Shown in pieces: positions 1-56,367 of a stretch of 64,000 bases of DNA (positions within the stretch are counted from its first letter, which is position 1; the number at the start of each line of letters is the position of its first letter). The notes below the pieces were generated by a model. It saw only the letters and a list, made by a program, of their open reading frames with translations. It did no database searches and was not told the DNA's origin. This stretch comes from a virus, in the IMG/VR virus record IMGVR_UViG_3300032061_000001, positions 1 to 64,000 of that record; one strand, 5' to 3'. The translations under genes were made by a program, and so were the position numbers.

Positions 1-190
1 CCCCATACTTTGTTAATAGTTTTGAAGCGGATAACGACAATATACGACTTCCAGTTCCAGTGTTTTTTGACCCGCTGCATCCATCTGAAACGATGACAAA
101 TGGATTTTCTTCATCTCCGATAACTGAAAAATCTTCATTCTCTTTATGAGTACTACCAATCTCAGAGAATTTATCAAAATACATTTTCAT
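1..190 (-). CDS. PP2C-like protein phosphatase (TerY-P type), N-terminal part; runs off the window
   Basis: Not in the ORF track. My translation from ATG 190 (ATGA overlap with the kinase stop) is MKMYFDKFSEIGSTHKENEDFSVIGDEENPFVIVSDGCSGSKNTGTGSRILS, carrying PP2C-family GxxH..NED and SDGCSGS motifs. Confidence 0.85.
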   Translation of the reverse strand, partial: MKMYFDKFSEIGSTHKENEDFSVIGDEENPFVIVSDGCSGSKNTGTGSRILSLSASKLLTKYG

Positions 191-1881
191 TTTTTCATCC
201 GTAGTTTATAGAGGTTATTATCTTTATGGAACATGACCTGTGACCCATTACTTGATAGAATACACAGGTTGTTAATGTGGTTATCAGTAATAACTTTTTC
301 TGTTTTTTCACCAACAGATGCGCTAAATATTTCTACCTCTGAGTTTTCGTTAATGAGTACTACAATCCCTTTATCAAGTACAGTGAAGTTTAATTCGCTT
401 TGTGAGCCAATGTTGTGAACAATTTTTATATCATATTTACCCTGATGATACCGAATAACAAAGCGTGTGTATTCTTGTCCTTTATAACCAATAACCATGG
501 CCACATTATGAATACATTTCGCTGAAATGATGCTATAACCGTCCAATTCCTGAACTTTTATAAATTCACCGCTGATTCTGTCTTTTGAAAGTTCTGGAAT
601 CCAAAGATAAGAGACACCTAAAACGTTTTGATACGCCATCCCCGAAAACAATTTGGTTGATAATGGCATCACAGACCAACTTTTATCTATGGCCATTATA
701 TGAGATGCAAATTTCCTAATTGGAGCTGTTGACAAATTTTCACCGGATTTAAAGAAAGGAATATTGTTCGTGATGGATATCTGTTCTATTTTGAATTGGA
801 TCTTGTTAATTTTCTTTTCATCAAGCGATCGAAAATAGTTTTTTGTAATTTCTACTGGAACTAACGTATCAGACGACATTGATATTTCAGAGTCAGGGTG
901 AGATAAATTGTATTGTCTATTACCGATATATAGGGTGTCACCCGCTCTTACAATATTTTCATTCATATATGAAAAATGATACCTGATTGAATCACTATAT
1001 GTTTTGAATAATTCAATATCAAAACAATCAGCATCATGTATGTGAGTATACATAGGTGTTGCTACCTGGAGCCTACCTCCTGCCAATGGAGGAAGAGTCC
1101 GTTTTCCTTTTTCAAAAGCATCCTCCATCCAGGATCTAAGATCATTAGGAATATGACTAAAATCTCTTGCCTGAGATGGTAGCTTAACGGACTTGTTAAA
1201 AACCGATTTCTTTGCCTTCATTCTTTCCACGACAGCCCCTTTCGTAAAGCCATCACAACTTCCCTTAAAAGGATGCATCCCAATAAATATTTGGAAGGCT
1301 ATAATCGCGAAACTAAACCAGTCGGATAATGGGGAGAATGTTTTTGATTCGTGGTCTTGGGCGTATGGCGTTATTGCTGTGGGAGGATAGTTCTTTGTTT
1401 TGTAACTATCAACATCGATAAAGATCGGCTGAGTTAAATTATTGTCATCAATCAGGAAATTGATATCGTTAAAATCAACAACCAAGCATTCCTTTGAGTG
1501 AATAAAATCTATAAGTTTCTGCATGTTTTCAACAAGCTTAACAGCATCTTCTGGAGTAAATCCTGTTTTATTTCTGAATCCCGTGGCAAATGTTTTACAA
1601 ATTGGATAATTATTTTTGAACCATTCCATGGTAAATCCAACAGGAACCCCTTTATTGTCACATAATATCTTTTGCGGATTGACGATATATCGTTCATCTA
1701 ACACTGATAGATCATCAAATTTTCCCTGTGGGATCATCTTCTTCGGGTCATGGTAAATCTTATAGATTGTATCGCCTAATCCATAAATTTCACCTTCTCC
1801 ACCTGAAGCAATAAAATCCTTTTGGGACAGGCTAATTTGGCCTGCCCCCGGAATGTGGACTTTTTTAGTCATACTTTCCAA
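187..1881 (-). CDS. Ser/Thr protein kinase (TerY-P-associated type) with a long C-terminal extension
   Basis: Gly loop ASGGEGEIY, YKIY lysine, catalytic DFNDIN, IDVDS, DWFSFA..GMHPFKG. Confidence 0.88.
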   Translation of the reverse strand: MESMTKKVHIPGAGQISLSQKDFIASGGEGEIYGLGDTIYKIYHDPKKMIPQGKFDDLSVLDERYIVNPQKILCDNKGVPVGFTMEWFKNNYPICKTFATGFRNKTGFTPEDAVKLVENMQKLIDFIHSKECLVVDFNDINFLIDDNNLTQPIFIDVDSYKTKNYPPTAITPYAQDHESKTFSPLSDWFSFAIIAFQIFIGMHPFKGSCDGFTKGAVVERMKAKKSVFNKSVKLPSQARDFSHIPNDLRSWMEDAFEKGKRTLPPLAGGRLQVATPMYTHIHDADCFDIELFKTYSDSIRYHFSYMNENIVRAGDTLYIGNRQYNLSHPDSEISMSSDTLVPVEITKNYFRSLDEKKINKIQFKIEQISITNNIPFFKSGENLSTAPIRKFASHIMAIDKSWSVMPLSTKLFSGMAYQNVLGVSYLWIPELSKDRISGEFIKVQELDGYSIISAKCIHNVAMVIGYKGQEYTRFVIRYHQGKYDIKIVHNIGSQSELNFTVLDKGIVVLINENSEVEIFSASVGEKTEKVITDNHINNLCILSSNGSQVMFHKDNNLYKLRMKK

Positions 1882-1891
1882 GGGCTATGGG

Positions 1892-2635
1892 TTAAAAGCT
1901 CAACGATTTTGAAGGACCACCGGTTCCAAGCGATTGACTTTGACTCGATATGGACTGAGAAACAAACTTTGCCAATTTAGCCAATGTTTTTGCATCGGCA
2001 TCTCCAGCATCAACGAATTGTTGTAGATTGGCGTCATTTTGAAAACGATTAAGATATGAACTAGACTGGCCAGCATTTATTCCTACCAGGATAGTCATAA
2101 TCGATTCGATGATTGTTTCTTGTTTCAATGCGTCTTCAATCTGCTTTTTGATCATTCCGGGAGTCATTTTTGAATCATTATCTTCACCATCGGTAATGAT
2201 AACACAAATCCCATTTACATCCATTTCCTGATCCTGAAGATCTTGTGAATATCTCAAAACAGAACCGACGCTTTCAAATGTGGCGTCAAACAAAGCCGTA
2301 CAACCATATGGTCTTAATGATTCATAAGCCGATAAATTGATATCGGCCAACGGCAAAAATCCATGAATCTCCTCCATTCCTTCATTGAAAAAAACAACAC
2401 GAACCAGAAGATTCTCCGCTCTTGGGGAATGTTTGCAAGATTCGATTACCGCTTTAATTGAATCTACTAATTCATTTCTGAATCCCTGCACACTTCCCGA
2501 TTTATCAACCACAATTGATACGAGCGTGTACTCCGTTGATTCAAGGTTTTCCGGGCGAACGCCGGAAAATTTAAAATTTGAATTGGCGACATTCATAATC
2601 GCCATATCATCTATTTCTTGTCCTATTTTTGGCAT
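1892..2635 (-). CDS. vWA domain protein (TerY-like)
   Basis: MIDAS DKSGS, GCTALFDA, IITDGEDN. Confidence 0.88.
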   Translation of the reverse strand: MPKIGQEIDDMAIMNVANSNFKFSGVRPENLESTEYTLVSIVVDKSGSVQGFRNELVDSIKAVIESCKHSPRAENLLVRVVFFNEGMEEIHGFLPLADINLSAYESLRPYGCTALFDATFESVGSVLRYSQDLQDQEMDVNGICVIITDGEDNDSKMTPGMIKKQIEDALKQETIIESIMTILVGINAGQSSSYLNRFQNDANLQQFVDAGDADAKTLAKLAKFVSQSISSQSQSLGTGGPSKSLSF

Positions 2636-2638
2636 TAT

Positions 2639-3436
2639 TTATACCATAAAATGAGTTGATTTTTCGAAACGAACGCCATGAGACTTGGCGTAATTGATAA
2701 AGTCATCGGCTGCTTTTTCAAAACCAGGAACCGGTGATGAGCAGTCTTCCAGAATAACCAGTTTCTTCGCATTTTCATCACCAAAATTATCGATGACTTG
2801 GGTTAATGTCGTCGCCAAACAATGCGAAAGCGCTTCACCGGCACAGACAATCATATCAGCTGATTGTAATGTCTGGATCAGGGCAGTATTCAACTGGGTC
2901 CCCGGATCGTTTTGATCTGGAACTTCAGCCATCAAACCTCCGTAATGCTCGGTCTTGTAATTGCTACCTTTAGTCACAATATCAAGAACAGCAACTTCTT
3001 CTACCGCCCACTTTCTCATGGATTCAAGCACGGCTGGAAAGATTCCAAAACCATTTGAACCAATAACACAATGGGTAGGCCAAACACAAAGAGGAAATTT
3101 ATTAGACTGCGCTTCCAATTTTTCGACATATTCCAAAGCCCAGGACTGTTCGCTTACTGATGAGGCCCGCCATTTTCCAGATTTCACATCGGTTGCTGTG
3201 ATAATGGTAAAAGGCTGTGGATTGTTTCCGGAACTGTCCTTCCAGTAAATAGGGTGGGCAATATCAAAGTCCTGATGGCTGTCCATCGTCACATGGATAT
3301 CATCAATTTTTGCGCTTACCCGGTTCATAAACTCAGCTAATATCTTCATATCCTGATCAGCTCCAGGGACAAATAATGCCCCCTTTGGATCACAGAAATC
3401 ATTCTGTGGATCGATAATCAATAGATGCAATTTCAT
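2639..3436 (-). CDS. Nicotinamidase / isochorismatase-family cysteine hydrolase
   Basis: IIDPQNDFC..GALFVPGA, DSH, WPTHCVIGS, KG, GEALSHC; RBS AAAAGGAGA. Confidence 0.9.
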   Translation of the reverse strand: MKLHLLIIDPQNDFCDPKGALFVPGADQDMKILAEFMNRVSAKIDDIHVTMDSHQDFDIAHPIYWKDSSGNNPQPFTIITATDVKSGKWRASSVSEQSWALEYVEKLEAQSNKFPLCVWPTHCVIGSNGFGIFPAVLESMRKWAVEEVAVLDIVTKGSNYKTEHYGGLMAEVPDQNDPGTQLNTALIQTLQSADMIVCAGEALSHCLATTLTQVIDNFGDENAKKLVILEDCSSPVPGFEKAADDFINYAKSHGVRFEKSTHFMV

Positions 3437-3503
3437 ATGCGTCTCCTTTTGACTTGAATTAAAAATTGGCCAGAAAACTCTGGCTAATGATACTACAACA
3501 TCT

Positions 3504-4261: not shown

Positions 4262-5251
4262 TTATTGATAAAGGGAAAGTATCCATTTGTCCCATTTTTT
4301 CGAATCAACCTTTTTAGGGAAATTGGATTTGGAACAAAGTTCTTCAACCTCATCCATTAAGTTTTCAAGTTTTGGAGCGACTTCTGTCATATAATCGCAT
4401 TCTCCATTTTTTACTCTCAAAAGCTCATCGGCTTCTTTCAAAGGGAAAATGATATCGCCTTCACGATAAAGGGATCTCATTTGATATGCGCATCTAAGAG
4501 CATGGCTGACTGCCTTCCAGTCAATTCCTTTGTTTTCTGCCGCTTTCTGCGCCCGTTCTCCATATGCCAGATAGAACTTTTCTATTACATCATAAGCATA
4601 TTGGATAGTCACAGTTGATTGCAACTTTCTATTACAAACGTCATACATTGGAAATTGAAAGCCATTTTCAGGATCAGCCGGTATCTTTTTTAAATGGTCC
4701 CCGATTGGCAATGAATACCAAATATCTTCTAATCTGATATTTTTTCCAGCATTAATATGGTATTTTAAATAGTCGATAACGACTTTTGAATCATTCAGAC
4801 GGCTTCCCTTAACCCCATATTTTGCAGCCTGCGTTCTGCAGTAACCGACAAACGCTTTTAAATTCGTCGTATAGAAATCTTTCCTATTATCATACAATTC
4901 AAGAAAAATTCCGCTATGCTGAATTATTGCTTCATCATTGCTCCATGCATGAAGTATATCCAATGCTCCGGTATCACCTTTCTTTAATAGCTCAAGATAA
5001 TAATGCAATGAATATAATTCAATATCAACATCGTCAGACGTATTTTTATTATCTGTTCCCGATTTTGAATTATACGTTATGGATTTTGGAATCCTGTTTA
5101 GAAAACATTGCTCTTTTGATGGAAGGAATATTCCCTTGATATCGGTATCCGAATTTTCTGTGGCCGTCCCATATAAATGGGACCCAAATTGGCATAGAAA
5201 AATGATATACAAATTAGGATATCCTTCCAGGAATTTTGTCATTATTGTCAT
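4262..5251 (-). CDS. Pol-beta superfamily nucleotidyltransferase (T4 NrdC.11 / RlaP-like)
   Basis: GSHLYGTATENSDTDIKGIFLP; IDWKAVSHALR..GDIIFPL C-terminal region. Confidence 0.85.
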   Translation of the reverse strand: MTIMTKFLEGYPNLYIIFLCQFGSHLYGTATENSDTDIKGIFLPSKEQCFLNRIPKSITYNSKSGTDNKNTSDDVDIELYSLHYYLELLKKGDTGALDILHAWSNDEAIIQHSGIFLELYDNRKDFYTTNLKAFVGYCRTQAAKYGVKGSRLNDSKVVIDYLKYHINAGKNIRLEDIWYSLPIGDHLKKIPADPENGFQFPMYDVCNRKLQSTVTIQYAYDVIEKFYLAYGERAQKAAENKGIDWKAVSHALRCAYQMRSLYREGDIIFPLKEADELLRVKNGECDYMTEVAPKLENLMDEVEELCSKSNFPKKVDSKKWDKWILSLYQ

Positions 5252-5263
5252 CGTTCTACCGTT

Positions 5264-6028
5264 TTAAAATGTATCTTCAGATACTAAACTAGATTGGATG
5301 AGATGAGCGAGTTCATGGCTGGTGATAGAAGAAGATATCTCTGCCGGCTTCCCCTTTCCTGACAAATCTCCCCATTGAACCATAAACCCCGACGGATGCT
5401 TAAACCATCCGTCAGGAAGTTTCAGTTTTGTGAGATCAATATCTTCCCTCATCCTTTTAGCCCCGATATTCATGCCAATACGAGTCACCAGAACATCGCA
5501 GGGTTTATCCAGGAATTCCATAACTCAAAAATATAGCTGCTCTCCTGCCGGTTGGGTTGTAATAGCCACTGATCCAACCCATTCAGCAGATTCGGCCAGT
5601 TCTTTGGCTCTCTGCCTTTTCAGTCCCATCGAAAGAAATCCATCGAATATTTTACTTGTAAACTCGATGACTTCCATATCAGTCATCGTTTCTTTGAGAG
5701 CATTAATTGTCTGGCTCAGGGAAATGAGTTCCGGGTTGGAAGGTAATTTCCCGGTATCTACTGAATTGACATAGTCAGCGATCTTAGACATCGCTTCCCG
5801 TTCTTTTTCCGGGAACCGTGAAACGATAAAAGCGCCTGCACATTCACCCGCGGGACCCTCTTTGATTCCGCATGTCATATCAACATACAGAATCCCTTCT
5901 TTGACTTCTTTGTTACCGGTAGCAGCAAATGCCACCGGGAGGTTGCCATACAATCTTTTTGCTGCCCATACGGATAGGCATGCATCAAGATCAGGTCTGT
6001 AATGTGTGATAATTCCTGAATATTTCAT
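5264..6028 (-). pseudogene. DHH/MYG1-like phosphoesterase interrupted by an in-frame TGA at 5525-5527 (pseudogene or readthrough)
   Basis: THYRPDLDA, YVD and VDTG motifs in the first ORF; WFKHPSGFM (MYG1-like C-terminal motif) in the second; junction TTT TGA GTT ATG is in frame. Confidence 0.6.
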
Positions 6029-6435: not shown

Positions 6436-6894
6436 CTAATATACTTTTTCTATCCTTTTCTTACCATCAAAAATAATCTCTCTGAATCTTAATCCCGGAT
6501 TCTGAGACAAAAAGAGCTTCCGCCTCATTGGATAGCTTTTTGAATTTGCTTTCAGAGTTCCGATCGATTTAACGTCTACAACTTCTTCAACACCTTTATT
6601 CAAAATTCTATAATCAAGAGTGAAGCCGATCGCTCGGTAAATCTTCCCGGTTCTTCTAATTTCTGGCAATAATTCAAAGTGAGGCTGGAGTTCCAGGATT
6701 TCGATTTCGGGATCATGCTTGAATTCCCAATAGATATTACCCTCAGTAGTCGAATCGAATTCAATTCCATCTATAATAACCTTCTTTGAATTAACGCGAG
6801 GATTATTTTTTTTTTGAGGAAGTGGTCGATCACCCCTGATCTTAGCATGACTTCCCTTCATGAGTTTTTTAAACTGATTTACTGATAGTCTCAT
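6436..6894 (-). CDS. DUF1064-family PD-(D/E)xK endonuclease
   Basis: NSKKVIIDGIEFDSxxE, LELQPHFEL, DVKS. Confidence 0.8.
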   Translation of the reverse strand: MRLSVNQFKKLMKGSHAKIRGDRPLPQKKNNPRVNSKKVIIDGIEFDSTTEGNIYWEFKHDPEIEILELQPHFELLPEIRRTGKIYRAIGFTLDYRILNKGVEEVVDVKSIGTLKANSKSYPMRRKLFLSQNPGLRFREIIFDGKKRIEKVY

Positions 6895-17529: not shown

Positions 17530-18894
17530 TTAAGGTCTTTGTGGTGGTTCCAGTTTTGAAAGACTGGCGAATTTTGTATATTTCCCGGAAAATGCAAGTT
17601 CAATCATTCCAAGAGGTCCATTACGATGTTTACCGATGATGATTTCAGCTGTACCTTTTTTGTCGGTATCCGGATTGTAAATCTCATCTCGATAGATAAA
17701 TAGAATAAGGTCCGCATCTTGTTCGATCGACCCAGATTCTCTTAAATCAGAAAGCCTTGGGCGTTTGTCAGTCCTATTTTCAAGTTGCCGGTTCAGTTGA
17801 GAAAGAGCAATTACAGGAACTTTTAATTCCTTCGCCAACTGCTTTGCTCCTCTTGATATTTCACTTATTTCTTGTTCCCTATTTCCAGCCTTTGATCCAC
17901 CTTTCATTAATTGTAAATAATCGATGACGATAATAGAAACGCCATGTTGGAATTCCCGATTCAATTTTTTTGATATAGCTCTTACTTCGGCAATGGATAA
18001 GGGGTCATCGTTTATATAGATAGGTGCTACTGACAATCTGTCCGTTGCCCCTGCAAGTCCATCCCAATCATCGTGATCAAAATTACCAGATCTGAATTTT
18101 TTTGAATCTACTCTTGATTCAGATGTTAACATGCGAACGGTAACTTGTTCTGTTGACATTTCCATACTGAAAATTAAAACGGCTCCTCTGAAATCAGATC
18201 GTGTTGCCACATAAGTGCCAATATTGAGTGACAAAGCTGTTTTCCCCATAGATGGCCTAGCAGCAATTATGATCAAATCTGAAGGTTGAAGTCCGGACGT
18301 AATTCTGTCCAGATCCATATATCCAGTAGGGATCCCGGTAATCTCACTTTTGTTTTTTGATATCTCTTCCAGCCTGTCGAATGTTCTAATGCAAGCATCC
18401 TTCATTACGACATAATCTTTTTTGACAGCCTTATTTCTTATCTGGAACAGTTTTTCATCGGCCTCATTTAGTAATTCTGCGATGCTCTGTTCTGGATCCC
18501 TTCCTTTTCTGCTAATGTCAGCTGCAGTTGTAATTAAATCCCTTAAAAGTCCGTCCTCCTGGATTATTCTTGCATAAAAAACAATATTGCCTGCAACCGG
18601 AGAACAATCGGTTAATTCTGCAAGATATGCATACCCACCAATCTCCTCTAACTTTCCATATTCATTCAATTTATCACCGAGCAATATCTCGTCTATCGGA
18701 CTTGATATTGCTTCCAGTTCAAGCACTGCCCGATAAATATGCTTATGACCTTCAGTATGAAAGTCTGAAATATTGAGAATTCCGATTATATCATTTAGTA
18801 AACTATTTTCCGTTATTATGGCACCTAACACGGCTTGTTCTGCCTCGAAGTCGTGAGGTATTGTCATTACAGACTTATTTTCTTTAATCGTCAT
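17530..18894 (-). CDS. dnaB: replicative DNA helicase
   Basis: PHDFEAEQAVLG, AARPSMGKT, IDYLQL, LSQLNR, DLRESGSIEQDAD, KHRNGP. Confidence 0.97.
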   Translation of the reverse strand: MTIKENKSVMTIPHDFEAEQAVLGAIITENSLLNDIIGILNISDFHTEGHKHIYRAVLELEAISSPIDEILLGDKLNEYGKLEEIGGYAYLAELTDCSPVAGNIVFYARIIQEDGLLRDLITTAADISRKGRDPEQSIAELLNEADEKLFQIRNKAVKKDYVVMKDACIRTFDRLEEISKNKSEITGIPTGYMDLDRITSGLQPSDLIIIAARPSMGKTALSLNIGTYVATRSDFRGAVLIFSMEMSTEQVTVRMLTSESRVDSKKFRSGNFDHDDWDGLAGATDRLSVAPIYINDDPLSIAEVRAISKKLNREFQHGVSIIVIDYLQLMKGGSKAGNREQEISEISRGAKQLAKELKVPVIALSQLNRQLENRTDKRPRLSDLRESGSIEQDADLILFIYRDEIYNPDTDKKGTAEIIIGKHRNGPLGMIELAFSGKYTKFASLSKLEPPQRP

Positions 18895-22979: not shown

Positions 22980-23183
22980 TTACAATCCTTCAGTAAAGAA
23001 ATCGTTGGCGGCATATTCTGGAGACTGGATAAATTGCTTGAACATATCTTCAGTCAAAACAACTTTTGTGATTTTACCGCCTGATTTCAGAAAATCTTCA
23101 ACCGCTTCCGCGATGAAAGAATGATCCGGTTTAAATTTCGATCTGTCTTTCTTTCTTCTTTTTGCGAACATATTCTTATTCAT
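22980..23183 (-). CDS. small SutA-like putative RNA-polymerase-binding protein
   Basis: IAEAVEDFLKSGGKITKV; start revised to the ATG after AAAAGGAGA. Confidence 0.55.
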   Translation of the reverse strand: MNKNMFAKRRKKDRSKFKPDHSFIAEAVEDFLKSGGKITKVVLTEDMFKQFIQSPEYAANDFFTEGL

Positions 23184-23204
23184 TTTCGTCTCCTTTTGAT
23201 TATT

Positions 23205-23234
23205 AAAAAGTGGCGACAACTGGTGCCGCCACTT
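23205..23234 (-). terminator. intrinsic terminator
   Basis: GTGGCGGCA-N5-TGTCGCCAC-TTTTT. Confidence 0.65.
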
Positions 23235-23426
23235 ACCTCAAATCTATTCTGTTTATCCAAATGACCATAAAAGGCTGCAGGCCCATATATTGGCCACAAC
23301 AATACGGTTCCCGCTGATCGGCATTTTTATGGTTTCGATATATTTTGTCCCGTCTCTTGCGGGAGGTAAACCTATCCAATCAAGCAGCCTTGTTGATGGA
23401 TAGGGGAAATAGGATAAATCCATTTT

Positions 23427-51835: not shown

Positions 51836-53572
51836 TTAGGTGTTTAGAAATTCAGTGGTACCAAACCCGAATTCAGGAATTGCAGGAACGACCAAATTGT
51901 GAACAGTATAATCGAATGTGATCCCCGAGGTAGAAAATTCAATATCACCCCAATCAGTGACCCAATAAACTGATTTATTAGCCTGCGATTCCAGCACTCT
52001 TCTAATATAAGTCTTTCCTTCAGCATTAAAAGGAGCCACACCACTTTGCTGAAATCCAGACATCCAGCTCTCAAGCTTTCTGGCGATATCATTATCAGAA
52101 AGCATCGCACAACGAACGCGAGAAGGAACTGTCATCATTGGTTCAATAGATGACTTTTTGGTCGTAAAAAATTGCCGTATTCGGGTAGTGGTATCTGTAA
52201 TTGCGAAGATAACGGATGCCTGATGCAGTTTTTTACGGTCAGCTTCACTATAAGAAGTGGATGCCTTAATTGCCGTTACTGTTTGGTTAGTCAATACACG
52301 ACTTGCCAGGCCACCCAAGAACATGGATGCAGCTCTTACCGCAAAATAACATGGCAATTGAGAACGCTCTATTCCCTGTTGATTAATGGCATCCAGACCA
52401 TCACCAAAGAATTGAGAATATTCCGAATCATGAGTATTTGAGATCGTCACAATTGCATCGGCATCTGACGGTTTGGCAATAAACCCTCCATTCCATCCAT
52501 AACCACCATGGGCTGAAATAAATGATTGCCTCCTCTTGCCACGCTTATCCGGTTGATTCATTTTGACAGCATGTTGCTCATCCAGAACCATAATAGCGGC
52601 TGTTAAAGTAGCATCATAGGGAGCGGGGATACCATCTGCGATTGGACAGGTGACTGCAAGAAACTGTTTTTCGAGTTCGTCATAAACCTTACCCCATTGG
52701 GTCGCATCAGGATCAACTCCGGAAGTTCCGCCAGCGAGATAAAATTCGAAATCCTCCACCATGACTGTCGCGGTCGCGGCCAATGTTGCATCGACGTCAA
52801 CGATTTCTTTATCCAGAAAATCATAAAGTTGTTTCAGGTCCGCTTTGAGTATAAGTCCGGCTGTAATAGCATTCTCGCCAACCAAATGGTCGAATAATCC
52901 TAACGTCGATTGGTTATCAGAAGTGGTTACATCTTTTACAATGGTGATCGTGTCATCACCATTTTCAATAGCGTTGATTAGGTCTATCAGCTTCGGATAA
53001 TCACTGAATTTATAGTCAACCAATGCTCCGGTTAAACCGACCGATATTGTCGTCGCGGTAATTGTGACGAATCCAGAAGCCATCGTAATGGTCATAATCG
53101 GGTTATCAATCGTTTTTGTATATGTATCGGGGGACCATGGGAATGTTACAGTTGCGAGTTTCGATGCTAGACTTACTTTAATGCCGTTACCAGCCGGGCC
53201 ATAGATTTTACTACCTAATGTTATTGCTGATACTCCTCCGAGCGCTGTTGTTTTAATGATTCCAGTTGCCTGAACTAATGCGCGGGGATTAAAAAACCTG
53301 ACATCTTGGGCAGGAGAAAGAGATGGGGATGGATTAAATGCCCCATATGCTGCCTCAACCACTGGCCCCTGGTCACCAAATACTTTCTGGACTTCGGAAA
53401 CATTTGTCGCCGCGACATATTCTCCAAATGCAGGTCCGTTAATGCCCTCAGCAATAATCATTAGCGCATTGACGCCAGATGGATTCGGGTTTGCATTTCC
53501 TACCGTTACGACTTTGGAATATACGCCAGGATCGAAAATGTCTTTTCCATAAAAACTATAAATCTGAGCCAT
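51836..53572 (-). CDS. tail sheath protein (Twort/SPO1-like)
   Basis: FxGK..PGVYS, IIAEG..G, SKIYG..GNGIKV, YLAGGTSG; start revised to MAQIY. Confidence 0.88.
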   Translation of the reverse strand: MAQIYSFYGKDIFDPGVYSKVVTVGNANPNPSGVNALMIIAEGINGPAFGEYVAATNVSEVQKVFGDQGPVVEAAYGAFNPSPSLSPAQDVRFFNPRALVQATGIIKTTALGGVSAITLGSKIYGPAGNGIKVSLASKLATVTFPWSPDTYTKTIDNPIMTITMASGFVTITATTISVGLTGALVDYKFSDYPKLIDLINAIENGDDTITIVKDVTTSDNQSTLGLFDHLVGENAITAGLILKADLKQLYDFLDKEIVDVDATLAATATVMVEDFEFYLAGGTSGVDPDATQWGKVYDELEKQFLAVTCPIADGIPAPYDATLTAAIMVLDEQHAVKMNQPDKRGKRRQSFISAHGGYGWNGGFIAKPSDADAIVTISNTHDSEYSQFFGDGLDAINQQGIERSQLPCYFAVRAASMFLGGLASRVLTNQTVTAIKASTSYSEADRKKLHQASVIFAITDTTTRIRQFFTTKKSSIEPMMTVPSRVRCAMLSDNDIARKLESWMSGFQQSGVAPFNAEGKTYIRRVLESQANKSVYWVTDWGDIEFSTSGITFDYTVHNLVVPAIPEFGFGTTEFLNT

Positions 53573-53832
53573 TATTTTCTCCTGAAGGTTGTATCCCAAA
53601 CTTTACGATAATTTTCTTCGGTGTCAACGGGAGGAACAACTTTTGGGAAAGCGGTAAATACCCCCGCATGTATATCAATTCCCCTCAATTCCTCTTTTAT
53701 TTTTTTGATAAAGATTCTGGATGAAATCTTTGGGGGCTCTTGTTTGGATACTTTTTTTTCCTCACCTGTCCCAAAGAATTCTTTTACATCTCCAATTACT
53801 TCATCAACTTTTGTAGTCGTTTGTTTTGCCAT
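53572..53832 (-). CDS. small virion-associated protein
   Basis: Directly precedes the sheath gene, as in Herelleviridae-like layouts. Confidence 0.5.
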   Translation of the reverse strand: MAKQTTTKVDEVIGDVKEFFGTGEEKKVSKQEPPKISSRIFIKKIKEELRGIDIHAGVFTAFPKVVPPVDTEENYRKVWDTTFRRK

Positions 53833-54441: not shown

Positions 54442-56367
54442 TTAAAGACTGAATCCGGGAACGTTACGAACAATAAAATTACGTTGTGGTGCCCAGACTG
54501 CCAGACCTGCTATATCTACAATTGCCCATTGGCGAGTCGTCCCATAATTGATGTCATACAGCGGGACTTCAAATGCCGGTGTCAATGAGATGTGCGCAAT
54601 ATCCAGCGGGTTGTTTGAAATGAAAAACATATCCGAAGTTCCAGGAATTTTCTGGTTGTAGTCGGTATATACAGTATCATCGGTTCCATTGATCGGAACT
54701 TTGGCAATACATTTTAATGCTGAATCAGCGGTTTCCCCGGCATTTCCACGATAGATCAGAAAATATCTGGCGGGAGAGACAGTATAACCACCGACCGTGC
54801 CACCAGCGAATGCAGCATCATAGGGGATGGTAATATCGACTACTTCAGTCGCGCCGACTGGATCTGGGGTAGTACCTTCAGATGTTGTCACAAGAGAATC
54901 TGAAACATCACTCTCACCGTGATCGTTTACAACTGATACTCGATATGTATAAGATCCTACCGGAGTATTCTTTGCTTCATCCACAGTTGCCCTAGCAATT
55001 GCTGTCACATCGGTGGCGGCAAGAGGCCAGGTTATCGCATTTTTGGAAACATCTGCGGCCGGTGTCCATGTGTCATTGGCGGTCAAATTGATTGTTTTTG
55101 AACGCTTGAACATGAACGTTCCAAGATCAGTCACGAACCCGGAAAAGTTCTGACCATAATAGAGGGCCGCTTGTTCATATTTTTCGATCATAACCCGTTG
55201 TTTACCATCAACAACAGTGCTGATATTGTTGGCAACGCCGTAATCCATCAACACGGAATATTTACCGGTGATGACACCCCCGGGAATATGACCGTTGACA
55301 ATCAGTTTCTCGGCTACTTCACGGAAGATGTTCAGAGGATCAGCTGAATCGCTGAACGCTACCCCATTCCAATCAATAACATGATCCGGATAACCAGTTG
55401 TGGCATCCAGCATTTGGTTTAACATGCCCTGGACTTCAAGAACAGTTGTGCCGTCTTTATTAATCAGGGAATCTCCATAAAGAAGATTGTGGTTCTTCCC
55501 TAGGTTGAATTCCAGAATGCGAAGTTCTCGTTCCAATGCCAGCGGGTTAAGATTGATCAATTTCTGCTTATTGGCCAGCAACATTTCAGTTACAGCGCAT
55601 CGAATACCACGCTGTACCAATGTATTTGTCAACCGGTCCATCAATTGACCACCACCATATACCGGAGTTTTACCTTCCCCGAATCCCATGGTATGCTTTC
55701 CATAACCGACACCATAAGTTTTTAACCGGGGGACTTCAGGTACGATATTTGGCGTTATCGCCGTGGGTATCGATTGTAGTGCGGTTGCGTCATCATTCGA
55801 CAACATGATACGCTGAATTTTTTGGGATAGGTTTTCCTCTAAGAAATTGTAAAATGCTCCGGGATCTCCGGGAGCTGCAGATGTTCCCAAAATGGATTTT
55901 GCCATATCGGCATATTGCTGATATTCACCATCCGTCCAGGATTTCATTAATTTCTTATACTTCGGGTCTTCCGGGTTCTTCTGTTGTTGCATTTGCTCTG
56001 CGGATAGCAGAGATTTCATCATGCTGCCAATTGCTGGCTGCAGGGACCCGGGTCCATATTTGGCATTGTAAAGGCTTTCGCTCGCTAAACCGAGATGAAT
56101 TCTCAAAGCTTCATCGAGAGATTTCCCGGGATAACTTTCTTCAAGAAGATCGTCAAATGATTTCACAAATGGTTCTACCGGCCCCAAAAAGTTAGGGGGA
56201 AGTTCCGCTTTTCGCTGATTAGCTTCCAGAACGCTAATTTTATTTTCCATTCGGGCTGTCTTTAGTCTAACAGCCTCGTCAATCGACTTTTTCAGCAAGG
56301 TCATGTTCTTTTCTAATTGAACATCCATGCTTTCTGTAGTCGGTTTTCCATCTAATTTATCAGCCAT
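54442..56367 (-). CDS. major capsid protein (Herelleviridae-like) with a long propeptide
   Basis: ENLS, LLYGDS..GML, inserted domain YTYRVSVVNDHGES..YFLIYRG..DYNQKIPGT, C-terminal LAVWAP..VRNV. Confidence 0.88.
   Translation of the reverse strand: MADKLDGKPTTESMDVQLEKNMTLLKKSIDEAVRLKTARMENKISVLEANQRKAELPPNFLGPVEPFVKSFDDLLEESYPGKSLDEALRIHLGLASESLYNAKYGPGSLQPAIGSMMKSLLSAEQMQQQKNPEDPKYKKLMKSWTDGEYQQYADMAKSILGTSAAPGDPGAFYNFLEENLSQKIQRIMLSNDDATALQSIPTAITPNIVPEVPRLKTYGVGYGKHTMGFGEGKTPVYGGGQLMDRLTNTLVQRGIRCAVTEMLLANKQKLINLNPLALERELRILEFNLGKNHNLLYGDSLINKDGTTVLEVQGMLNQMLDATTGYPDHVIDWNGVAFSDSADPLNIFREVAEKLIVNGHIPGGVITGKYSVLMDYGVANNISTVVDGKQRVMIEKYEQAALYYGQNFSGFVTDLGTFMFKRSKTINLTANDTWTPAADVSKNAITWPLAATDVTAIARATVDEAKNTPVGSYTYRVSVVNDHGESDVSDSLVTTSEGTTPDPVGATEVVDITIPYDAAFAGGTVGGYTVSPARYFLIYRGNAGETADSALKCIAKVPINGTDDTVYTDYNQKIPGTSDMFFISNNPLDIAHISLTPAFEVPLYDINYGTTRQWAIVDIAGLAVWAPQRNFIVRNVPGFSL

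Follow-up and report, generated by a model that had tools for sequence, protein, structure and literature searches.

The stretch of DNA considered here, called the window, is the first 64 kb (positions 1 to 64,000) of IMG/VR virus record IMGVR_UViG_3300032061_000001, a linear viral contig of 73,894 bp with a CheckV completeness of 64%. At the extreme end of the contig, window base 1 being contig base 1 so that the record has no sequence to the left of it, lies a cassette of four co-directional minus-strand open reading frames (ORFs), which encode a nicotinamidase, a protein with a von Willebrand factor A (vWA) domain, a Ser/Thr protein kinase and, cut by the contig end, a fragment of a PP2C phosphatase (Table 1). 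An earlier prediction, made from the sequence alone, described these genes as a tightly coupled operon joining a TerY-P-like triad to an enzyme of nicotinamide adenine dinucleotide (NAD) salvage. The coupling is confirmed from the sequence: the nicotinamidase and vWA genes are separated by a 3-nt gap (TAA-ata-ATG), 10 nt lie between the vWA stop codon and the TTG at 1881 that opens the kinase ORF, and the stop codon of the kinase shares the ATGA at 190-187 with the start codon of PP2C, so that the junctions read as translationally coupled. Since all 12 close homologs of the kinase begin with MTKKV, comparison with them places the probable start at the ATG at 1872, in which case the vWA-kinase gap is 19 nt.

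Table 1. Positions of the cassette genes and of other features of the carrier contig
Feature	Positions	Strand	Remarks
PncA-type nicotinamidase	2639-3436	-	265 aa; divergent family with longer inserts
vWA protein	1892-2635	-	247 aa
Kinase ORF	187-1881	-	564 aa from the TTG start
Ser/Thr protein kinase domain	1093-1881	-	Pfam Pkinase, 2e-5
Kinase C-terminal all-beta domain	187-1023	-	29 strands, predicted 7-bladed beta-propeller; disordered linker to the kinase domain
PP2C phosphatase, first 63 codons	2-190	-	Cut by the contig end
Shine-Dalgarno sequence AAAGGAGA	3442-3449	-	Strong; 5 nt before the nicotinamidase ATG; read from the sequence
Terminator-like hairpin GCCAGAG-TTTT-CTGGC, then a T run	3469-3484	-	Putative; within the 67-nt spacer ahead of the nicotinamidase gene
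RlaP-family nucleotidyltransferase	4262-5251	-	329 aa; PF10127, 7e-13; 0.8 kb upstream of the cassette
Protein with a weak ChrB_C-like match	5525-6028	-	2e-4; upstream of the cassette
DUF1064 protein	6436-6894	-	8e-20; upstream of the cassette; this and the preceding entry lie among small uncharacterized genes
DnaB-like helicase	17530-18894		Carrier contig
Tail sheath	51836-53599		Carrier contig
Major head protein	54442-56367		Carrier contig

Protein families of the cassette

The nicotinamidase is matched weakly by the Pfam Isochorismatase profile (PF00857; E-value 0.016, 15.8 bits vs a cut-off of 27) and by the NCBIfam nicotinamidase/pyrazinamidase model (NF008623) at 2.2e-9, with 37.4 bits vs a cut-off of 174. 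A phmmer search of the Protein Data Bank (PDB) matched yeast Pnc1 and M. tuberculosis PncA, and a profile built from 55 homologs reached yeast Pnc1 at 5.7e-20, nine of its ten best matches being named nicotinamidase or pyrazinamidase/nicotinamidase and the sixth (3r2j) being alpha/beta-hydrolase-like. In addition, the AlphaFold2 (AF2) model, with a mean predicted local distance difference test (pLDDT) score of 95, was compared with the PDB by Foldseek; the 11 best matches are all nicotinamidases (E 6e-15 to 1e-10), and other isochorismatase-like amidases rank lower in the list. All 55 homologs keep the catalytic Asp-Lys-Cys residues D9, K156 and C206, which align with D8, K122 and C167 of Pnc1, as well as the metal ligands D52, H54 and H122, which align with D51, H53 and H94 of Pnc1. 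The Asp-His-His metal site (DxH ... WPxHC) was used as the criterion separating nicotinamidases from other isochorismatase-like amidases. Solved PncA structures show the metal bound to the free pyridine nitrogen of nicotinamide. The metal site is kept in the phage enzyme, and therefore nicotinamide is favored over nicotinamide mononucleotide or nicotinamide riboside as the predicted substrate.

The phage enzyme has the fold, the D-K-C triad, the D-H-H metal site and the WPxHC and KG motifs in common with yeast Pnc1 (2h0r), the A. baumannii enzyme (2wta) and M. tuberculosis PncA (3pl1), but it is 50-80 residues longer (265 vs 180-216 aa), with inserts and a C-terminal extension. Moreover, the housekeeping pncA gene stands alone or with pncB, whereas the phage-cassette family is, as a cassette gene, always encoded with the signaling triad. 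Given its greater length and its scores below the curated cut-offs, the enzyme is classed as a divergent PncA-type family that is sister to the curated families and not an equivalog of them. Long forms of the nicotinamidase (511-533 aa; P0124-P0136) occur in Patescibacteria and metagenomes, and carry an unannotated N-terminal domain of about 250 aa that is not a vWA domain.

The vWA protein matches Pfam VWA at 1.5e-5 (25.7 bits vs a cut-off of 23.8) and phrog_7371 at 2e-16. Its metal ion-dependent adhesion site (MIDAS) is intact, with D44-x-S-x-S48, T113 and D149 invariant among vWA homologs. The most conserved stretch of the protein is its Ser-rich C-terminal tail, FVSQSISSQSQSLGTGGPSKSLSF, for which the homologs give the consensus LAKLAxFVSxSISSQSQALGTGGPSQxLxF, with S228, S233, G239 and S242 invariant. 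No NCBIfam or PADLOC match assigns the protein to the TerY subfamily, and the vWA profile matched no PDB structure.

Across 120 homologs, the kinase residues G24, K38, D133, N135/N138 and D153 show little or no variation, and the C-terminal domain is likewise kept at full length. The AF2 model (pLDDT 91) consists of the kinase domain, disordered residues 270-280 and 29 beta strands at 284-559, which are arranged in the predicted model as seven four-stranded blades plus a closing strand. The roughly 290 extra C-terminal residues to which the original prediction drew attention are thus real, and in this model they fold as a seven-bladed beta-propeller. In Foldseek searches, the kinase domain resembles IRAK4, Lyn and BRAF, and the propeller resembles LRRK2 (kinase plus WD40) and the propellers of Nup159 and Nup133. 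LRRK2, with its similar kinase-WD40 domain order, is the best whole-chain fold match, but identity is only about 11% and the TM-score is low owing to a different domain orientation, so that the likeness is an analogy of layout and not a family relationship. The closest relatives of the kinase (P0002-P0010) are 60-80% identical, and the family comprises at least 824 clusters at 90% identity, spread over many bacterial phyla and one archaeal metagenome-assembled genome. At four loci (L028, L039, L093 and L094) the match is limited to kinase residues 12-273, and PP2C was not detected by tblastn; these kinases may carry a different C-terminal domain.

The 63 residues of the PP2C fragment match Pfam PP2C_2 (0.056) and the NCBIfam Stp1 PP2C model (0.0018) weakly, and show the N-terminal motifs ED... 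and DGCSG. The fragment is 61% identical to the N terminus of a 260-aa PP2C that follows the kinase at locus L037, in the chromosome of a Zixibacteria genome, with the same 4-nt overlap; that full-length protein matches PF13672 at 3.4e-11. Intact catalytic motifs, which had been read in all four proteins, are therefore present in the nicotinamidase, the vWA protein and the kinase, whereas for PP2C only the N-terminal motifs are visible in the 63 residues available.

Conservation of the cassette, gene order and carrier

A search anchored on the nicotinamidase recovered 30 viral loci, in 28 of which a vWA gene follows directly, with PP2C and the long kinase also present in about 25. The reciprocal search, anchored on the kinase and using an alignment of close homologs, recovered 3 viral, 4 genomic and 55 metagenomic loci; a single-protein kinase scan of viral contigs gave no match, and an alignment-based scan of these gave distant relatives only. 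Where the kinase is full-length and at least 4 kb of upstream sequence is available, nicotinamidase, vWA and PP2C are all present in 31 of 32 loci. The expectation that the nicotinamidase would be conserved beside the triad is thus borne out in both search directions. Furthermore, the pairwise identity matrices of the four proteins correlate (Mantel r 0.72-0.85; 47 loci), which fits inheritance as a unit.

The lone exception among the 32 is L037 (CP070742, 9823-12465), where a kinase 57% identical to that of the window, the PP2C and a 58-codon vWA remnant sit between an M16 peptidase and a ZIP transporter; no nicotinamidase of the window family was found anywhere in this Zixibacteria genome. 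L037, which holds the closest complete relative of the window kinase, looks like a decayed remnant of the cassette. The relationship is also a weak hint at the host lineage of the phage.

The distribution of the cassette in cellular genomes is sporadic. The kinase occurs in 2 of 301 sampled Chloroflexota genomes, and only 2-4 uncultured phage records in GenBank, three of them huge phages, hold the nicotinamidase family or the kinase, neither of which was found in the cultured phages of GenBank. We conclude that the four-gene unit is a widespread, horizontally mobile module, of which the window holds a phage-borne copy.

The gene order of this copy is unusual, as had been predicted. The usual order is nicotinamidase-vWA-PP2C-kinase (53 loci), whereas the kinase precedes PP2C only in the window, in L041 (kinase 74% identical) and in the Zixibacteria locus. 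These two loci share the window's local order and its ATGA-type overlap, and all three fall in the closest clade of kinase homologs; a single kinase/PP2C swap at the base of this clade is the simplest reading. Extra genes inserted in related cassettes usually separate vWA from PP2C; the tightest junction is that of nicotinamidase and vWA (median about 64 nt, as measured from tblastn ends). Two further arrangements were observed: a circularly shifted cassette, PP2C-kinase-nicotinamidase-vWA (L035, 9164-13262), and a locus with long inserts between the cassette genes in which the kinase match falls in two pieces and may reflect a frameshift or an interrupted gene (L087, 9998-11682).

The carrier is a genuine tailed phage, judged by its major head protein, tail sheath and DnaB-like helicase. 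The contig also encodes a DNA methyltransferase and further helicases, and its minus strand holds nearly all of the long ORFs. The phage is mid-sized and myovirus-like, with an estimated genome size of about 115 kb, provided that CheckV is right about the 64% completeness. A DNA-level search of GenBank phages with the carrier stretch gave no match, and the only public run in which this stretch was found is from a salt-marsh metagenome, which is probably the source of the contig; no RNA run containing it was listed. A separate Logan assembly of that run stops within the PP2C gene at the identical base and leaves no loose end, and the rest of the gene was not found elsewhere in the 73.9-kb contig, including its opposite end. 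The coinciding ends of the two assemblies suggest a repeat or strain break in the sample and not the terminus of the genome. No integrase was found on the contig, which is 64% complete; a prophage-borne defense, considered as a reading of the locus, is not supported by this search of an incomplete contig.

Several features around the cassette may be recorded here. The spacer upstream of the nicotinamidase gene holds the hairpin and Shine-Dalgarno sequence listed in Table 1, and no convincing sigma-70 promoter was found between this hairpin and the nicotinamidase start. A similar arrangement of hairpin, T run and AAAAGGAGA precedes the gene starting at 23183, and in both minus-strand segments, 3425-3500 and 23172-23250, a GC-rich hairpin and a T run are followed by TCAAAAGGAGACG and an ATG. 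This arrangement may be a shared terminator and ribosome-binding-site unit at the borders of inserted gene blocks. RlaP-like genes such as the one upstream of the cassette lie within 8 kb of it in seven viral loci (L010, L011, L012, L019, L028, L031 and the window) and in none of 19 kinase-anchored loci, mostly metagenome contigs, that have 8 kb of flank on both sides.

Link to NAD metabolism and relation to known systems

In some relatives the cassette is adjoined by genes for nicotinate phosphoribosyltransferase (NAPRTase; pncB), glutamine-dependent NAD synthase (nadE) and NUDIX proteins, and pncB lies within 10 kb of it in 11 of the 19 loci with 8 kb on both sides. A protist transcript from MMETSP (P0142, 1358 aa) encodes a CN_hydrolase domain, NAD synthase (NadE), a nicotinamidase and the start of a eukaryote-type kinase in one protein, and its nicotinamidase part belongs to the family of the window enzyme (38% identity, 5e-59). 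The kinase part of this transcript was considered as a relative of the phage kinase and ruled out, being unrelated. The neighboring genes, together with the NadE-nicotinamidase fusion, support the connection with NAD that had been drawn from the window.

Among known systems, the triad is most readily compared with TerY-P, of which E. coli yegI-pphC-yegL is an example. As defined by Anantharaman, Iyer and Aravind (2012) and summarized in PMC10542128, TerY-P combines a TerY-like vWA protein with a PP2C and with a kinase that bears a zinc ribbon at its C terminus; in the anti-phage TerY-P-like modules of Gao et al. 2020, an OB fold takes the place of the zinc ribbon (PMC10542128). The cassette has the same three protein types in a tightly linked operon, including a vWA protein with an intact MIDAS, and both systems are predicted to be metal- and phosphorylation-dependent switches. 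The vWA-PP2C-kinase order of TerY-P is common to most relatives of the cassette, although the window has the kinase before PP2C. In contrast, the cassette kinase bears a beta-propeller and not a zinc ribbon or OB fold, with no CxxC pairs in its sequence; the nicotinamidase is a fixed fourth gene; and the cassette neighbors NAD genes and not tellurite-resistance or restriction genes. In PADLOC-DB, neither the window proteins nor their full-length relatives matched a TerY-P model, and only weak generic kinase and PP2C matches were obtained. The proposal of a TerY-P-like triad thus holds for layout and fails for membership: because of the propeller tail and the lack of a PADLOC match, we regard the cassette as TerY-P-like in layout and not as a member of the group.

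The second comparison is with the phage pathways NARP1 and NARP2 (bioRxiv 10.1101/2024.02.11.579819) and NARP3 (PMC13464706), which likewise consist of phage enzymes acting on NAD+ breakdown products; in relatives of the cassette, pncB and nadE would rebuild NAD+ from nicotinamide. The chemistry is different, since the cassette would combine deamidation with the Preiss-Handler route, whereas the NARPs employ Adps/Namat, Nampt/NMNAT and PnuC/NadR. PncA is not mentioned in the NARP1/NARP2 preprint (bioRxiv 10.1101/2024.02.11.579819) or in the NARP3 paper (PMC13464706). Moreover, no NARP has a kinase/phosphatase/vWA set, and any counter-defense role of the cassette is hypothetical. Genes resembling pncA are known from large phages, among the NAD+ synthesis genes of jumbo phages (PMC11662467) and as the PncA-like gp275 of phage G (PMC12484599). 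Neither of these papers mentions a linked kinase, phosphatase or vWA protein, and the carrier of the window cassette, in contrast to these phages, is mid-sized. What is distinctive in the window is the mid-sized, myovirus-like carrier, the kinase/PP2C swap and the absence of adjacent salvage genes.

Proposed mechanism and significance

The anatomy of the genes, their catalytic residues, the folds, the conservation of the linkage and the frequency of pncB/nadE neighbors are shown by the analysis; from them we infer a substrate, a direction of control, that is, who phosphorylates whom, and a benefit to the phage. We propose that the nicotinamidase feeds NAD+ resynthesis and that the kinase/PP2C/vWA switch acts on this enzyme, a reading to which we give an even chance of being right. 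The metal-dependent PncA-type enzyme would turn free nicotinamide into nicotinate, the entry to the Preiss-Handler route to NAD+. The Ser/Thr kinase, predicted to be cytoplasmic, would use its beta-propeller as a sensing or docking domain, PP2C would reset the switch, and the MIDAS vWA protein would act as a phosphorylation-dependent adaptor, with its conserved Ser-rich tail as the likeliest phospho-acceptor or MIDAS ligand. The switch would thereby gate the activity or the assembly of the nicotinamidase. In the infected cell, the module would recycle the nicotinamide released by NAD+-cleaving defense enzymes and by ADP-ribosyl transfer, with the later steps PncB, NadD and NadE supplied by the host in the case of this phage. 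A wider version, put forward tentatively and considered unlikely as it stands, would make the cassette a nicotinamide-responsive phospho-relay: the nicotinamidase would both report and remove what NAD+ cleavage produces, and the propeller kinase, PP2C and vWA protein would convert this into a switch. Phages would thereby have a fourth way of reconstituting NAD+ against TIR-/SIR2-type immunity, regulated and based on the Preiss-Handler route, and the cellular copies may conversely deny nicotinamide to NARP-carrying phages.

Several observations weigh against recycling by a switch-controlled nicotinamidase. The enzyme scores below the curated Pfam and NCBIfam cut-offs and forms a separate family, so that its substrate could differ. 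Correlated divergence of the four proteins is expected of any linked genes, and the search for fusions found no nicotinamidase joined to vWA, phage-type kinase or PP2C that would prove the coupling. The kinase is not strictly required, as three huge phages (L005, L023 and L027) have the nicotinamidase with vWA only or alone. Profile searches of the 73.9-kb contig found no pncB, nadE, NMNAT or NUDIX gene; in particular, PF04095 (the NAPRTase/Nampt family), PF01467 (NMNAT), PF02540 and PF00293 had no match, while Adps, Namat and PnuC were not searched for. Salvage here would depend on the host, although the record lacks 36% of the genome; were nicotinamide recycled by the module in this phage, either the salvage genes would lie in the missing third of the genome or the host would supply the remaining steps. 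Finally, full-text literature searches returned no publication describing the four-gene cassette.

One may argue that the triad is a general switch with other host or phage targets and that the nicotinamidase is merely co-expressed, not phospho-regulated, for example to relieve the inhibition of NAD+-consuming enzymes by nicotinamide. Many proteins could dock onto a beta-propeller, the nicotinamidase occurs without the kinase in some phages, and the Zixibacteria chromosome keeps kinase, PP2C and a vWA remnant without a nicotinamidase. However, that locus has the appearance of decay, the nicotinamidase is kept in all but one of the 32 kinase loci, and its junction with vWA, 3 nt in the window, is the tightest in the cassette; we consider this explanation rather unlikely.

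A module of conflict, in which the kinase senses an invader and activates the nicotinamidase, so that nicotinamide is drained from competitors with NARP1- or NARP2-type pathways and superinfection is excluded, seems quite unlikely. It would accord with the stand-alone anti-phage action of TerY-P-like triads (PMC10542128, citing Gao et al. 2020), with the use of nicotinamide by NARP1 and NARP2, and with a distribution that is sporadic, as in Chloroflexota, yet extends over many phyla and phages, as is the pattern of mobile conflict genes. On the other hand, no PADLOC defense model matches any component, full-length relatives included, and no integrase was found on the contig; moreover, the commonest neighbors, pncB and nadE, return nicotinate to NAD+, which fits recycling and not draining.

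It is very unlikely, in our estimate, that the enzyme acts in vivo on another pyridine or pyrazine carboxamide or on some other small amide, with an indirect link to NAD. The sub-threshold scores (Pfam 15.8 vs 27 and NCBIfam 37 vs 174 bits), the extra inserts in a protein of 265 aa vs 180-216 aa in the solved enzymes, and the presence of other isochorismatase-like amidases lower in the fold list would all allow for such a substrate, but all six active-site and metal-site residues are invariant, the best sequence and fold matches are nicotinamidases, and a role in NAD metabolism is indicated by the pncB/nadE neighbors and by the NadE fusion. The position of the cassette at a contig end that cuts the PP2C gene, where another assembly of the run that is probably the source stops at this very base, could raise the suspicion that unrelated genes are adjacent by chance or through an assembly artifact, but this is effectively refuted by conserved synteny, the same four genes standing together in more than 50 independent loci and L041 and L037 sharing the local order and the ATGA-type overlap.

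Bacteria rely on NAD+ depletion as a major anti-phage strategy. Since 2024, three pathways have been described by which phages rebuild NAD+; none of them employs a nicotinamidase or a dedicated kinase/phosphatase switch. The window shows that the module, besides occurring in huge phages and in bacteria with tiny genomes, is also carried by a tailed phage of ordinary size that lacks the rest of the pathway. If the module does gate the recycling of nicotinamide, it would add a regulated route to the arms race over NAD+ and would give TerY-P-like triads their first defined metabolic partner. Moreover, as its four proteins are small and soluble and the enzyme is easy to assay, the module would be a convenient system for finding out what a vWA/PP2C/kinase triad does.

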